61,332 nucleotides of DNA, taken from positions 1 through 61,332 of the forward strand of contig CADCWF010000251.1 in NCBI GenBank assembly GCA_902806345.1, in the 5' to 3' direction. This document shows, in pieces, positions 10,221-35,574 of the stretch; position 1 is the stretch's first letter; each line of letters begins with the position of its first letter. The stretch comes from an uncultured Thermomicrobiales bacterium. Lineage in GTDB: Bacteria; Chloroflexota; Chloroflexia; Thermomicrobiales; UBA6265. Position numbers and translations under genes: made by a program. Below the pieces are notes generated by a model. That model did no database searches. It was not told the DNA's origin and saw nothing but the letters and a program-made list of their open reading frames with translations.

Positions 10221-10799
10221 CTACGGCCGGAACGGGCTCACGAGATCCGCGCGGAGCCATCCCTCGTCGCCGTCTTCCGTTTCGAAACGCATCCACGACT
10301 GCCCGTCGGACCCGTTCCCCGATTCGTCCAGGTAGCGGAGCGGCGCCGCGATCGGGATCGCCCGGATGATTTGCCCGTTCGGTCCGCTGCGGAGATTGAC
10401 GCTTTGGAGGGCGTTGACTTGATGGGTCGGCTCGAACGCCTCCCGGGTCGGTGCCGGCGTCGGCGTCGGCATCGGCGTCGGTTCCGGCTCGGGGGTCGGG
10501 GTCGGCTCCGTCGCGCCGAGGATCGCGTCTTGTGGTTGGGCAGCGGCACCGGCGTTGGGATTCACGGGGGCCGATTGCTGGTCCACCGTCTGCGAAATCG
10601 GCGCCGGGTTGATCGCCGCCGGCGCGGCGCGCGGGGCCGCGATCGGGACGACGTCCTGGAGCACCGGCATGAGCGCCGCATAGATGAATGCGGCGGCACC
10701 GAGGCAAAGGGCGATCGTCAGGATCATCGAGAGGCCGATCGCCAGGCCGGCGCGGCGAGACTTTTGACGGAGGCGGTCGTTGAGGGCGCGGTCGGTCAT
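10221..10799 (-). CDS. Membrane-anchored protein with Pro/Thr linker and C-terminal SH3b-like domain
   Basis: N-terminal TM helix, PTPTPEPEPTP linker, then VNLRSGP...W...GW(L) SH3b-like pattern. Confidence 0.75.
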   Translation of the reverse strand: MTDRALNDRLRQKSRRAGLAIGLSMILTIALCLGAAAFIYAALMPVLQDVVPIAAPRAAPAAINPAPISQTVDQQSAPVNPNAGAAAQPQDAILGATEPTPTPEPEPTPMPTPTPAPTREAFEPTHQVNALQSVNLRSGPNGQIIRAIPIAAPLRYLDESGNGSDGQSWMRFETEDGDEGWLRADLVSPFRP

Positions 10800-10915
10800 G
10801 CCGGCTCTTGCACGCTGGAGGTCACCCGAGGAGCGACCGGCCGGGGCGGCCGGGGGCGGCGGAACGGCGCGGAGTATAGCACCGCCTCCGCCTCCCTTGA
10901 CGGCTTCCGTCCAAC

Positions 10916-10931
10916 TGGCACGCGACGTGCA
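10916..10931 (+). promoter_or_regulatory. Candidate sigma-54 (-24/-12) promoter
   Basis: TGGCACG-CGAC-GTGCA with exact GG-N10-GC spacing, about 50 nt upstream of the small ORF at 10981. Confidence 0.6.
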
Positions 10932-10980
10932 GCGTCGGTTTTCCCGCTGGTTGGCGGGAACGCCACAAGGAGGACCAACC

Positions 10981-11220
10981 GTGTCATACCCCTATCCCCA
11001 GGATCGCCACCGCGACCGCCGCGAAAAGGGCGAGACCGAGTACCGCGAGGCACGCCAGGCAATGTCCGGCGCCGAGGAGGCCCAGGCCGCCGCCGCCGAG
11101 TACGCCGGCGAGCAGCGCTCCGGAGACGAGCCTTCGATCGCCGACATCGAGGAGAACCTGGAAGAGGCCGCCCGCGAGGTCCAGCGCTCCATCGCGGAGG
11201 AGGACGAGTCCCGGCCGTGA
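10981..11220 (+). CDS. Small acidic hypothetical protein (79 aa)
   Basis: Strong SD (AAGGAGG) ahead of GTG 10981. Sequence MSYPYPQDRHRDRREKGETEYREARQAMSGAEEAQ...SIADIEENLEEAAREVQRSIAEEDESRP is Glu/Ala-rich and helical-looking. Confidence 0.75.
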   Translation: MSYPYPQDRHRDRREKGETEYREARQAMSGAEEAQAAAAEYAGEQRSGDEPSIADIEENLEEAAREVQRSIAEEDESRP

Positions 11221-11344
11221 GGACGAACGGATGCGGCGGGGACGCGACCCGGCCCGAGCGGCAACTTGCCGCCGCGCCAAGTAAGGCGCGTTCGCGAGGG
11301 TTGCCGCGTGAATCGACGTGGACCGACGATGATGGAGGAATCCG

Positions 11345-12625
11345 ATGGCGACCGATCCGGTCGAGCAGGTAACGGTCGAGACCTTTCCGGCAGTAGGGGC
11401 GGCGGAACTGCTCGTCGAGGCGAAGCGCCTCGCGGAACTCTCCCCGGGGCCGGACCTCCCCTACCTCTCGGCGACGATCGACCTGAGCCCCGAGGGCGGA
11501 AGCCCCAACCGCCGCCCCGGCCGTGAGGTGTTCGACCGGATGGTGGCCGAGCGGATCGCGGAGATGTCGGCCCACGACCCGGCCCGCCTCGGTCTGGAGG
11601 CAACACTGGGACGGGCCGCCGCGGCGCTCGATAGACTCGATCCGTCAAGCCGCGGCGCCCTCGTCGTCTGCGGCGGTCCGGACGAGGTGGCGGAGACGAT
11701 CCCGGCGTCGCTGCCGCTGCCGAACCGGCTCACCCTCGGGCCGACACCTTCCCTGCTCGATCTGGTCCGGCTGGCCGACGACGAATCGTCTTATGCCGTG
11801 GTCATCGCGGACCAGCGGGATGCTGAGATCCTCCTGGTCTCCGCCGCATCCCCCGAGCTCCAGATCTCCGTCGAAGCCAACGAGTTTCCCCGCAAGCAGA
11901 TGCAGGGCGAGTGGTCGCAGCGACGCTACCAAATGCGCGCCGACGAGCGGATCGAGGCGTTCGCTCGGACGCTGGCCCAGGAGACCCGGCGGTTGGTTGA
12001 ATCGGGCCGGGCCGCACACGTCGTGATCGCGGCGGACGAGCCGATGCGCTCGACGCTCAAGCACGAATCCCACCAGATCGTGACCAACAAGCTCGTCGGC
12101 GAGGTCGGCGTGATGCTGGGCGCGGCCCCCCAGTCGGTCGTCGAACGGACCCGACCGGTTGTCGATGCGGCGGAACGGGCGCGCGAAAGCGAAGCGGCAA
12201 AGGCGGTGCAGGACGGTGCCGGCCCCGGCGGCCGCAGCGTCACCGGGGCGGTCGAGACGTTGACCGCGCTCCAGACCGGGCAGGTCAAGACGCTGGTGAT
12301 GAACGATGACTTCCAGGCCCGCGGATGGGCCGACTTCGCGCTCGGCAGCTACGGGGTGGGTGAGCCGCCAGCCGAGCACCCGGCCGGGGGCGACGCGGTC
12401 GATCTCCGCCCGGTGGCGCTAGAGCAGGAGCTGGTCCGTCTGGCGCTGCTGACCGGGGCGGAGATCGAGATCGTCCGCACGACGGCACCGGTCGGTCCCG
12501 ACGAAGCCACGCGTGACGGCGGCGACGGCCGAACGGAGGCGGCGCGTCTCCTCGACGGGCTCGGTGGCGTCGGCGCGACGCTGCGGTTCACCCTCGCCAG
12601 CGACCGCTCGACGGCGGAGATGTAG
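11345..12625 (+). CDS. Bacterial aeRF1/Vms1-like release-factor superfamily protein (baeRF)
   Basis: RKQMQGEWSQRRYQMRADE loop (family pattern GGxSQxRY). C-terminal eRF1 domain 3-like segment (VETLTALQTGQVKTLVM...GGVGATLRF). Confidence 0.82.
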   Translation: MATDPVEQVTVETFPAVGAAELLVEAKRLAELSPGPDLPYLSATIDLSPEGGSPNRRPGREVFDRMVAERIAEMSAHDPARLGLEATLGRAAAALDRLDPSSRGALVVCGGPDEVAETIPASLPLPNRLTLGPTPSLLDLVRLADDESSYAVVIADQRDAEILLVSAASPELQISVEANEFPRKQMQGEWSQRRYQMRADERIEAFARTLAQETRRLVESGRAAHVVIAADEPMRSTLKHESHQIVTNKLVGEVGVMLGAAPQSVVERTRPVVDAAERARESEAAKAVQDGAGPGGRSVTGAVETLTALQTGQVKTLVMNDDFQARGWADFALGSYGVGEPPAEHPAGGDAVDLRPVALEQELVRLALLTGAEIEIVRTTAPVGPDEATRDGGDGRTEAARLLDGLGGVGATLRFTLASDRSTAEM

Positions 12626-12698
12626 CAACGGCTGGTGAACCCTACTCTAGGGCGCGCCTGGCCATGGGCGATCTCCGAGAGAAGCAGTCGATGGACGT

Positions 12699-12733
12699 CC
12701 TCTGTCCCAGTGGGAGAGGGGGCGGGTACAGGG
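12699..12733. repeat. REP-like palindrome, family B
   Basis: CCTCTGTCCCAGTGGGAGAGGGGGCGGGTACAGGG, between convergent baeRF and rpoN. Confidence 0.6.
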
Positions 12734-12804
12734 ACCTTCTCCGTTCGGATCCCCGCTCCTGTCGATCGAGCGCAGGTGAAGGGAGCACGCCGCGAACGCC
12801 AATG

Positions 12805-12844
12805 CCCCTCTCCCGCCGCGGCGGGAGAGGGGTTGGGGCGAGGG
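12805..12844. repeat. REP-like palindrome, family B; possible terminator role for rpoN
   Basis: CCCCTCTCCCGCCGCGGCGGGAGAGGGGTTGGGGCGAGGG, ending 2 nt from the rpoN stop codon. Confidence 0.75.
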
Positions 12845-12846
12845 CG

Positions 12847-14343
12847 TCACCGCATCGTCGAGGGCAGGATGCCGAGTTCGGCCCGGTACTTCGCGACCGT
12901 GCGGCGGGCGATTCTGATGCCGCGATCCATCAGCAGGTCGCAGATGCGGCGGTCGGTGAGGTGCTCACCCTTCTGCGTCTCCCGCTCGACCAGCTCCTTG
13001 ATCACGTCCTTGACACTCAGCGAGGGGGTGAAAAAGTCGCTGAACGGGATCACCTTGCGCGACGGCAGCATGACGTACTTGTTGGCGGTGGCGCGGCTGA
13101 CCGTGGATTCGTGGACGCCGACCTGCTGGGCAACGATGGCCCGCGTCAGCGGCTTCAACTCACGGACGCCGCCGCGGAGGAACGGCTCCTGGAGGTCACA
13201 GATGCAGCGGCTGATCTTGAGGAGCGTCTCCCGCCGCTGCTGGATGTTGGCGATGAAGAGCTTGGCGCGCGAGCTGTAGCTGCGGATGTGGTCGCGGTCC
13301 GCGGCCGAGACGCCGTTCGCCGGCGCGCCGGCGCCATGGGCGTGTCCGGTGAGATGACCGTTGGCCTTGGCGAGACCGTTGCCGTTGCCGTTGGCCGAAA
13401 CGGACCGCTTACGCCCCATCTCGCTCGCCAGCTTGTCGTACACCGGGCTCAGCTTGAGGTGGAAGTGGGAGGTGTCGACGATCTCGACGACGAGCTCGCT
13501 GTCCTTGATGGAGATCACCACGTCCGGGGCCACGTAGTGGGCGCCCGAAGGCGTGCGCCAGGAGCGGGCCTGCTGCGACTGGAGCGGGAAGGGGTTGAGG
13601 AAGGACCGGATGAAGGTCCGGGCCTCCTCGACCTCGTCCGGCGAGAGACCCAGCTCCTTGCCGATCTGGCCGAACCGGTGAGCCCCCAACTCCCCCAGGT
13701 GGCGGCCGACGATGGCCTCGACCTGGGGCGGCACGTCGATCCCGGAGCGACGCAGGTAGGCGATCTGGAGGAGCAGCGACTCCTGGAGCGAGCGGGCGCC
13801 AACGCCGACCGGGGCGACATCCTGGATGACCTCGACGATCGCGTCGATCTCCTCGATGGTGCGGCCGGTCAAGCGCGCCAGTTCGGCGAGGTCGCACGTC
13901 AGTAGGCCCCGCTCGTCGATGGCGTCGACCAGGTACTCGGCGATCGGGTACTCCTCGGGCGAGAGGACGGTGCGGGCATCGCGCAGGATCACCGCGCGGA
14001 TGTCGTCGCTGTGGGCGACCAGGGTCAAGGGGTCGAAATCGTCGCTGTCCTCCCGCGTCTGGGACAGGTTCACGAGCAGTTCCGGCATGTCCTCGTAGCG
14101 CTCGGGGTCGGCGCGGTCACGCTGGCTGACGAGGCAGATGGGGCAGAAGCTTCCTTCGAGGACGTTGCCGCAGACGGGACACGAGGGGAAGTCTTCGGCC
14201 TCAAGCGCCGGGTTGGCATCCATCTCCGCCTGGACGGCGGTTTGCAACTCCTGTCGGGAGAGGCTCAGGATGTGGTTGGCCTCGATCAGGCTCGGCGAGA
14301 CCCACGACCGCATGTCCTGCGAGAGATCGAATCCAATATCCAT
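12847..14343 (-). CDS. rpoN: RNA polymerase sigma-54 factor
   Basis: Region I ELQTAVQAEMDANPALE, VGVGARSLQESLLLQ, HTH LKPLT...VGVHESTVSRATANKY, and RpoN box IARRTVAKYRAELGI. Confidence 0.97.
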   Translation of the reverse strand: MDIGFDLSQDMRSWVSPSLIEANHILSLSRQELQTAVQAEMDANPALEAEDFPSCPVCGNVLEGSFCPICLVSQRDRADPERYEDMPELLVNLSQTREDSDDFDPLTLVAHSDDIRAVILRDARTVLSPEEYPIAEYLVDAIDERGLLTCDLAELARLTGRTIEEIDAIVEVIQDVAPVGVGARSLQESLLLQIAYLRRSGIDVPPQVEAIVGRHLGELGAHRFGQIGKELGLSPDEVEEARTFIRSFLNPFPLQSQQARSWRTPSGAHYVAPDVVISIKDSELVVEIVDTSHFHLKLSPVYDKLASEMGRKRSVSANGNGNGLAKANGHLTGHAHGAGAPANGVSAADRDHIRSYSSRAKLFIANIQQRRETLLKISRCICDLQEPFLRGGVRELKPLTRAIVAQQVGVHESTVSRATANKYVMLPSRKVIPFSDFFTPSLSVKDVIKELVERETQKGEHLTDRRICDLLMDRGIRIARRTVAKYRAELGILPSTMR

Positions 14344-14463
14344 CCGTCACCTCGGCGTGCGTGCGTTCTCCGGCATCGCTGTCGGACCGGACCAACTGGG
14401 AAGCGCTACGGCGCAGCGGCATGGCACGCCGCGAACATCCACGGCAGGAACACCTTGGCCTTC

Positions 14464-14479
14464 TGGCAGGTTTCTTGCT
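14464..14479 (+). promoter_or_regulatory. Candidate sigma-54 promoter facing the site-2 protease gene
   Basis: TGGCAGG-TTTC-TTGCT with GG-N10-GC spacing and a canonical TTGC. Confidence 0.65.
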
Positions 14480-14495
14480 AACCGCCGCCGGCAAG

Positions 14496-14511
14496 CGCAG
14501 GAACCGTGCCA
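14496..14511 (-). promoter_or_regulatory. Candidate sigma-54 site facing rpoN (autoregulation)
   Basis: Minus strand reads TGGCACG-GTTC-CTGCG: GG-N10-GC spacing with a perfect -24 element. Confidence 0.6.
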
Positions 14512-14649
14512 CAAAGACCACGGTGGGTGCCAACGCTCGCCGATATCGTCGCGCCGGAGAGACGGTCCTCGCCGTCCAACTGGTATCCTGTCGCACGTTG
14601 GCGCAAGATTTCAGGGATCGTTCGGCGGGAGGGGACTCGGACAACCAGC

Positions 14650-35558: not shown

Positions 35559-35574
35559 TGGCGCGGCGATTGCA
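35559..35574 (+). promoter_or_regulatory. Candidate sigma-54 promoter (best match in window)
   Basis: TGGCGCG-GCGA-TTGCA with GG-N10-GC spacing, about 110 nt upstream of ATG 35688. Confidence 0.7.

Follow-up and report, generated by a model that had tools for sequence, protein, structure and literature searches.

The window analysed here is a stretch of 61,332 nucleotides that constitutes contig C251 of the 5.08-Mb metagenome-assembled genome (MAG) of an uncultured Thermomicrobiales bacterium from biocrust (71% G+C). We consider it likely that it carries a sigma-54-dependent operon of two genes, encoding a small acidic protein and a factor related to the ribosome hibernation factor Balon, and that this operon belongs to a stress or dormancy regulon under an NtrC-type regulator. 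All of the elements that a sequence-only reading of this DNA had listed (a sigma-54 promoter box, an AAGGAGG sequence, a small open reading frame [ORF], a baeRF gene and rpoN) were found where it had placed them (Table 1). Below, G000 denotes this genome, other G numbers relative genomes, L numbers loci and X numbers RNA runs.

The element at the head of the operon, TGGCACGCGACGTGCA, has one mismatch to the consensus TGGCACG-N4-TTGCW, with its GG and GC at the correct spacing of exactly one helical turn. Matches to this consensus with at most one mismatch numbered three in the window against 0.30 expected, a count reached in 1 of 100 shuffles. With a position weight matrix (PWM) derived from 21 boxes of the small-protein family, the site scored highest genome-wide, although it was itself part of the training set. 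As a single box is weak evidence alone, the decisive support is that from comparison and from RNA. Of the 28 loci of the small-protein family, 26 had a GG-N10-GC box 53-83 nt 5' of the start codon. This count is made up of 21 of 22 distinct loci, in which the box read GGCA(C/T)-N5-(C/G/T)TGC at that distance, a divergent copy in G014, and four of five informative distant metagenomic members. The boxed loci come from many Thermomicrobiales genera besides these distant members, and their flanking DNA and upstream genes differ. GGCA and TGC were invariant in all 21 aligned boxes, and the -12 element was mostly (G/C)TGC(A/G); the distant members, recovered by profile search from genomes of 55-65% G+C, had TGGTAC or TGGCAC variants. 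At the frequency of GGCA[CT]N5[CGT]TGC in this genome (3.2e-5 per position), about 0.005 matches would be expected per 160-nt upstream region.

The same 16 bp form a perfect inverted repeat (GCACG-N3-CGTGC) here and in several orthologues, and might be read as the palindromic operator of a dimeric transcription factor instead of a sigma-54 promoter. However, many of the boxes are not palindromic (GGGCACATATTCTGCA, CGGCATGGTTCTTGCC and TGGTACTGGGATTGCG) and yet keep GG and GC invariant at a fixed spacing, and the conserved 5' T/GG lacks a counterpart in the palindrome. Moreover, boxes occur among the relatives only where rpoN is present, and RNA starts just 3' of the element, so we give the operator next to no credence.

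The locus is present in biocrust and soil metatranscriptomes of several studies, and these public data show that the operon is expressed in nature. RNA contigs started between 10955 and 11010 in eight of ten biocrust or soil metatranscriptomes (X3 and X11 at 10955, X14 at 10956, X18 at 10960, X4 at 10966, X2 at 10979, X15 at 10989 and X16 at 11010), with coverage low or absent directly before these boundaries and zero across about 100 nt upstream of the contig start in X11, X14 and X16. Unbroken contigs join the small ORF to the baeRF gene in X2 (10979-12354), X4 (10966-11823) and X3 (10955-11433), and the two genes are therefore cotranscribed. Consensus scans of 10700-12900 revealed no sigma-70-type promoter and no intrinsic terminator. 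The 124-nt spacer between the two genes contained no terminator or promoter consensus and folded no better than shuffles, and the same was true of the folding of a hairpin in the 5' untranslated region (UTR; 10941-10960).

On the other side of the box, an extended -10-like sequence, TGCTATACT, lies on the minus strand at 10871-10879 and faces a divergent SH3-domain gene (10221-10799). Its reverse complement, GAGTATAGCA, is conserved in the same place in G002, G005 and L042, and RNA contigs of the SH3-domain gene extend to 10854-10881. We considered this putative promoter as a yardstick for the loss of 5' ends from contigs but dropped it, because the contig of one run reaches 10881, beyond the predicted start of the SH3-domain gene.

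The gene for sigma-54 lies tail-to-tail with the baeRF gene; Pfam domains and coordinates agree on this arrangement, which the sequence-only reading had described. The genome encodes one strong PF00158 protein, a response regulator with REC, AAA+ and HTH domains and the motif GHEKGAFTGA (C116:15176-16549). For co-occurrence of rpoN, activator and small gene we used 41 relative genomes, 28 rpoN-positive and 13 rpoN-negative. Across these, the activator orthologue is single-copy (54-85% identity) and co-occurs with rpoN, often adjoining it. The orthologue stands beside rpoN in G016, G017, G018, G023, G028, G032 and G036; in G000, the activator gene runs with its stop codon into the start of a gene for glycerol kinase. 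The small gene was found in 10 of the 28 rpoN-positive relatives and in none of the 13 rpoN-negative ones, and the boxes likewise track rpoN, being present with it and absent without it. In these relatives, where co-occurrence had been suggested as a check, the small gene is restricted to rpoN-positive genomes and recurrently adjoins baeRF, but the pairing is not universal. Taken together, the 26 of 28 boxes, the RNA boundaries, the presence of rpoN and a GAFTGA activator, and the co-occurrence of boxes with rpoN strongly support sigma-54 control of the operon, and we are confident in the assignment of promoter and operon.

We also looked for other targets of sigma-54 in the genome. PWM matches fell in non-coding DNA in 64% of cases, compared to about 37% for column-shuffled PWMs. 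Because the genome-wide PWM alone discriminates weakly, candidates were judged by conservation among orthologues. Among rpoN-positive relatives, about 18 loci with orthologues or paralogues of DUF892 (YciE/F-like) genes had boxes, at -55 to -116, while the DUF892 genes of the rpoN-negative G006, G008, G026 and G030 had none. At the loci L078/L090 (G022:C99:37219-38582), two tandem DUF892 genes each have their own box at -116. An uncharacterised 160-aa family (the C371 family) has two paralogues here, both preceded by boxes, and boxes were kept in about ten relatives; for the Mn catalase gene the box was kept in three or four of six relatives. Further candidates preceded by boxes encode an SDR-DUF892 fusion, a Ferritin_2 protein, a DUF2795 protein and a sigma-70-family factor, and in G007 and G020 baeRF genes without a small gene carry boxes of their own. 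The box of the sigma-70-family factor (regions 1.2, 2, 3 and 4) is CGGCATGTGACGTGCA, which scores 18.4 and is situated at C365:6007 on the plus strand, 88 nt 5' of the gene; it hints at a cascade from sigma-54 to this factor. Such contents give the regulon the look of a programme for general stress, desiccation or dormancy. General stress sets depend on sigma-S or sigma-B in E. coli, Salmonella and Bacillus, and the usual roles of sigma-54 concern nitrogen, flagella, transport and envelope functions; by analogy, the candidate regulon resembles the sigma-S and sigma-B general stress regulons.

Several observations weigh against the promoter and regulon as drawn here. Two runs cover the box itself, X9 with a contig from 10909 and X10 continuously from 10768. 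The start near 10942 that had been predicted from the -12 position is compatible with the contig boundaries but unproven, because the contigs are unstranded and not 5'-end-specific and lose transcript ends, which also limits them as start-site evidence; the earliest recurrent 5' boundaries are 10955 and 10956, the former 13 nt downstream of the predicted +1. A k-mer search of the 220 nt upstream of 21 boxes returned GC-rich background only and no activator-binding motif, and the C116 activator has no adjacent kinase. Non-coding PWM matches with a score of at least 13 numbered 50, compared to 25-57 for shuffled PWMs, and as this absolute excess is modest, regulon calls made in a single genome are uncertain. 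Finally, the canonical long HPF gene of the genome, located elsewhere, has no box, which places HPF outside the regulon.

The small ORF is nested in frame within a 146-aa ORF with a TTG start (10780-11220). Homologues of the 79-aa protein in nine related genera, together with a family profile, established that it is a real, conserved gene as had been proposed, although its being "unannotated" does not hold in general, as close homologues elsewhere have been called as genes and labelled "hypothetical protein". The family comprises 66 clusters at 50% identity among 1.84 billion representatives and is confined to Thermomicrobiales and Chloroflexota MAGs. Searches with the sequence yielded no match in Pfam, NCBIfam or the Protein Data Bank (PDB), and a Foldseek search of the model against the PDB was also empty. 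The AlphaFold2 model has two helices, 6-46 and 53-76, with a mean pLDDT (predicted local distance difference test) of 81. In the N-terminal family consensus MSYPYPQDRHRDRxEKGEQPYKDA, residues M1, S2, P4, P6, R9 and Y21 are invariant. No other target of the sigma-54 regulon is as constant as the small protein.

This genome has three copies of the small gene. The third (L033; C344:10110-10453) encodes 87 aa and has its own box, CGGCACACGGCGTGCG, at -80, with no baeRF gene downstream. At six stand-alone loci (L024, L026, L027, L040, L045 and L047), the neighbourhood is conserved: a gene for a putative PDZ/S41-like protease lies upstream, and on the downstream side comes a convergent ORF encoding about 90 aa (…ITGEQAAEQLQQAARR…), followed by what appear from their sequences to be genes for a GtrA-like protein and a large membrane glycosyltransferase.

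A family-10 baeRF gene directly follows the small gene in 11 loci, the gap between them being -11 to 124 nt. Among these pairs are two paralogous ones in this genome, the most divergent members of the family and one pair with overlapping ORFs; one highly divergent locus has the order DUF892, small gene, baeRF. The second pair of this genome (L035; C89:10247-11890, minus strand, 36-nt gap) is nearest to the G009, L046 and L042 pairs. The small gene and baeRF diverge in a correlated manner from pair to pair (Mantel r 0.45, p 0.012), which fits duplication as a unit. This genomic linkage is the support for the earlier suggestion of a partnership between the small protein and the release factor homologue; no observation made here favours the other suggested role, that of an RNA mimic. 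The two genes are unlinked in at least ten genomes, G015 lacks baeRF but has the small gene, and the baeRF of rpoN-negative genomes occurs with no small gene, so the partnership is not obligate. The C89 pair, in addition, has no upstream box and is presumably regulated differently.

The small protein could also be a stand-alone stress protectant of the hydrophilin or late embryogenesis abundant (LEA) type, acting for example in desiccation, which shares a promoter with baeRF incidentally in some lineages and would contact neither the baeRF protein nor the ribosome specifically. We regard this as somewhat unlikely. The protein is extremely hydrophilic and acidic, with a grand average of hydropathy (GRAVY) of -1.52 and a pI of 4.45 (family medians, -1.5 and ~4.7), and is predicted to form long helices. 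In many genomes its gene is monocistronic and distant from baeRF, and G015 has it in the absence of any baeRF. The proteins that share its regulation, DUF892, Mn catalase and DUF2795, are typical of general stress, and the habitat is biocrust. However, the N-terminal 30 residues are strongly conserved, which would be unusual in a bulk protectant. Of the classical hydrophilin properties, the protein has the hydrophilicity but not the glycine content above 6% (5.1% here, with a family median of about 5%), and the 11 adjacent loci, with the most divergent members and the overlapping pair among them, speak for a tie to baeRF.

The identity of the baeRF gene, also called correctly from sequence, was borne out by Pfam matches above the gathering scores on the central eRF1-like domain: baeRF_family10 (PF18854) at 54.4 bits against a cut-off of 27.1, and baeRF_family2 at 49.9 against 26.9. 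In the PDB, the best match was to archaeal aRF1 (3agk, residues 58-332), followed by the Balon homologue Msmeg1130 (8v9j, residues 101-381). The NCBIfam hibernation-factor models (Rv2629, MSMEG_1130 and Balon) were all matched, but the three scores, 60.1, 44.6 and 35.3 bits, fall far below the cut-offs (320, 480 and 330), and the protein is therefore a distant relative outside the characterised subfamilies. The Balon-family factors, namely Balon of P. urativorans, Msmeg1130 of M. smegmatis and Rv2629 of M. tuberculosis (Helena-Bueno et al. 2024, PMC10901736), fall in the baeRF-1 clade (PMC6514570). Balon homologues occupy the A site of idle ribosomes, and their genes lie in stress operons (PMC10901736).

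The sequence of the catalytic loop is KQMQGEWSQRRY in this protein and QQGGWSQRRY in relatives. In HMMER alignments, the position of the GGQ glutamine is taken by W (GEW here, GGW in most relatives) or by P, L, M, F or N in other members. The SQRRY that follows is identical to that of archaeal aRF1, and neighbouring glutamines are conserved. By homology with Balon, Msmeg1130 and Rv2629, the most likely function of the baeRF protein is to park idle ribosomes by occupying the A site and not to release peptides. A case can also be made for catalysis, with the protein serving in rescue or release as a peptidyl-tRNA hydrolase on stalled ribosomes and not as a passive hibernation factor. The best Pfam match is to family 10, which has been singled out for a conserved catalytic-loop glutamine and as possibly catalytic (Burroughs and Aravind 2019, PMC6514570), and this tells against our assignment, as do the highly conserved loop YPRKQQQGGWSQRRYQ with its aRF1-like SQRRY and nearby glutamines and the ranking of aRF1 above Balon among the PDB matches. 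Against catalysis, in turn, are the replacement of the GGQ glutamine itself, the matches to all three hibernation-factor families, and the position of the gene within a stress-type regulon, as with Balon homologues (PMC10901736). We judge a catalytic role unlikely.

Five genomes (this one, G005, L042, L039 and L038), with RpoN identities down to 42%, have the small gene convergent on rpoN, whether or not baeRF accompanies it. A feedback role of the small protein upon sigma-54 or its activator would explain why the small gene is kept beside rpoN, and the small gene is also the highest-scoring, as well as the most constant, sigma-54 target. In most genomes, however, it lies away from rpoN, linkage to baeRF is commoner than linkage to rpoN, and the protein has no similarity to known anti-sigma or anti-activator proteins, which makes such a regulator very improbable.

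The convergent layout kept in these five genomes could alternatively serve antisense control, in which sigma-54-driven transcription through baeRF into the 3' end of rpoN would damp rpoN, and one X2 contig (12422-13059) does bridge the gap between the two genes. Yet a perfect 13-bp hairpin in that gap is very stable (-43.1 kcal/mol; z -5.1 for the plus and -3.9 for the minus strand) and is probably a terminator or insulator in both directions. The majority of RNA contigs break at 12674-12762, those of X3, X4 and X9 at 12674-12841, and the contigs carry no strand information. We consider antisense damping exceedingly unlikely. The sole match in Rfam was a chance sub-threshold hit on this hairpin.

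In the model that we favour, RNA polymerase with sigma-54, encoded next door in convergent orientation, would bind the -24/-12 box at 10916-10931 and would fire only upon activation of the sole NtrC-type enhancer-binding regulator of the genome (C116; REC, AAA+ and HTH). The transcript would begin no more than about 25 nt downstream of the box, and the operon would yield the acidic 79-aa protein with its two predicted helices and the family-10 aeRF1-like protein with GEW for GGQ. The small protein would probably work with the baeRF protein on or near the ribosome. The regulon would span the DUF892 and 160-aa families and probably also Mn catalase, DUF2795 and the sigma-70-family factor. The sequence features, the conserved box, its co-occurrence with rpoN and the activator, the RNA boundary with cotranscription and the recurrent gene pair are what the data show directly, while in this scheme we infer the exact transcription start, the dependence on the activator, the inducing signal, ribosome binding and the contact between the two proteins. 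The translation-stress or dormancy module of the sequence-only reading is plausible on these grounds, given a distant Balon relative and co-regulated genes of the stress type. A bolder version, which we offer tentatively and would not be surprised to see fail, holds that the SYPYP small protein is a dedicated stoichiometric partner of factors with a GGW loop in family 10, in ribosome parking or rescue, and that in Thermomicrobiales the pair may form the core of a sigma-54 general stress and desiccation regulon with a single NtrC-type regulator, filling the role of sigma-S or sigma-B, with rpoN positively autoregulated in many relatives.

The baeRF protein is like Balon, Msmeg1130 and Rv2629 in its three aeRF1-like domains, its lack of GGQ, its stress-type operon, its occurrence in more than one copy per genome, and its matches to 8v9j in the PDB and to each of the three RHF models of NCBIfam. 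It differs in its assignment to Pfam family 10, its GGW/GEW-SQRRY loop nearer to archaeal aRF1, the sigma-54 promoter and the dedicated small protein encoded upstream. The neighbours of Balon genes reported previously include RaiA, Hsp20, RtcB, sigma-70 factors and others, with neither a sigma-54 promoter nor the small protein among them (PMC10901736), and no paper in the literature we searched joined Balon to sigma-54. In Proteobacteria, rpoN is linked to hpf (yhbH, "sigma-54 modulation protein"; Francke et al. 2011, PMC3162934). There, as here, a ribosome-silencing gene stands beside rpoN in a conserved association, but here that gene encodes a Balon-like factor, is accompanied by the small gene, is convergent instead of co-directional, and is itself sigma-54-dependent. 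The -24/-12 architecture, the RpoN box and the GAFTGA activator are those of NtrC-type sigma-54 regulons, from which this one differs in apparently having a single activator across the whole order and in its stress-like targets (DUF892, Mn catalase, DUF2795 and the Balon-like factor) in place of nitrogen, flagellar and transport genes.

Small proteins of stress and dormancy include hydrophilins and LEA proteins and the ribosome-silencing RMF, Sra, Stm1/SERBP1 and Dap1b. The small protein is similarly small, highly charged, helical or disordered, and co-expressed with dormancy genes, but has no detectable relation to any of them in sequence or fold, has a sharply conserved N terminus, and is net acidic where RMF and Stm1 are basic. 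The novel elements are the conserved sigma-54 control, the stress-type sigma-54 regulon with a single activator, and an undescribed small protein tied to family-10 factors. An entire bacterial order thus seems to run a stress or dormancy set, including a Balon-like factor, by one pair of sigma-54 and activator. Family-10 factors are a subgroup that may act either in catalytic rescue or in passive hibernation, and a small family is now genetically tied to them; a partner protein, if true, would be new to the Balon field. The analysis also offers a concrete promoter, one candidate activator and a list of targets for organisms that dominate desiccation-prone soil crusts.

Table 1. Features of the operon and of the convergent rpoN gene, in window coordinates
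Feature	Position	Strand	Remarks
Sigma-54 (-24/-12) promoter TGGCACGCGACGTGCA	10916-10931	+	GG 10917-10918, GC 10929-10930
Predicted 5' UTR	10942-10980	+	Start ~10942, placed from the -12 position
Shine-Dalgarno AAGGAGG	10967-10973	+	7 nt before GTG 10981
Gene for 79-aa acidic hydrophilic protein, GTG start	10981-11220	+	N-terminal motif (M)SYPYPQDRHRDR
Operon spacer, 124 nt	11221-11344	+	GGAGGA at 11334-11339
baeRF family-10 gene, 426 aa, ATG start	11345-12625	+	Three-domain bacterial aeRF1 homologue
Perfect 13-bp GC-rich hairpin	12804-12833	.	Between convergent baeRF and rpoN
rpoN (sigma-54)	12847-14343	-	Three sigma-54 Pfam domains and ARRTVAKYR RpoN box

Elsewhere in the window, a third near-consensus box, TGGCGCGGCGATTGCA, lies at 35559-35574 with one mismatch; its score with the family matrix is low owing to GGCG. 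Two sigma-54-like boxes stand face to face at 14464-14511, between rpoN and a gene for an M50/CBS protease. The plus-strand box, TGGCAGGTTTCTTGCT, predicts a start at about 14490, and RNA contigs on the protease side, which begin at 14494-14522, fit this. The minus-strand box, TGGCACGGTTCCTGCG, lies 168 nt before the start of rpoN, and about ten relatives likewise have a box on the same strand upstream of rpoN; autoregulation of rpoN is unproven here, because the ends of the rpoN contigs (14394-14406) fall about 80 nt short of the start that the minus-strand box predicts. RpoN itself has a zinc-ribbon-like CPVC-x8-CPIC insertion directly after region I (residues ~55-70; 14134-14181), and a similar CPVC...C stretch is present in the RpoN of the distant relative L039.

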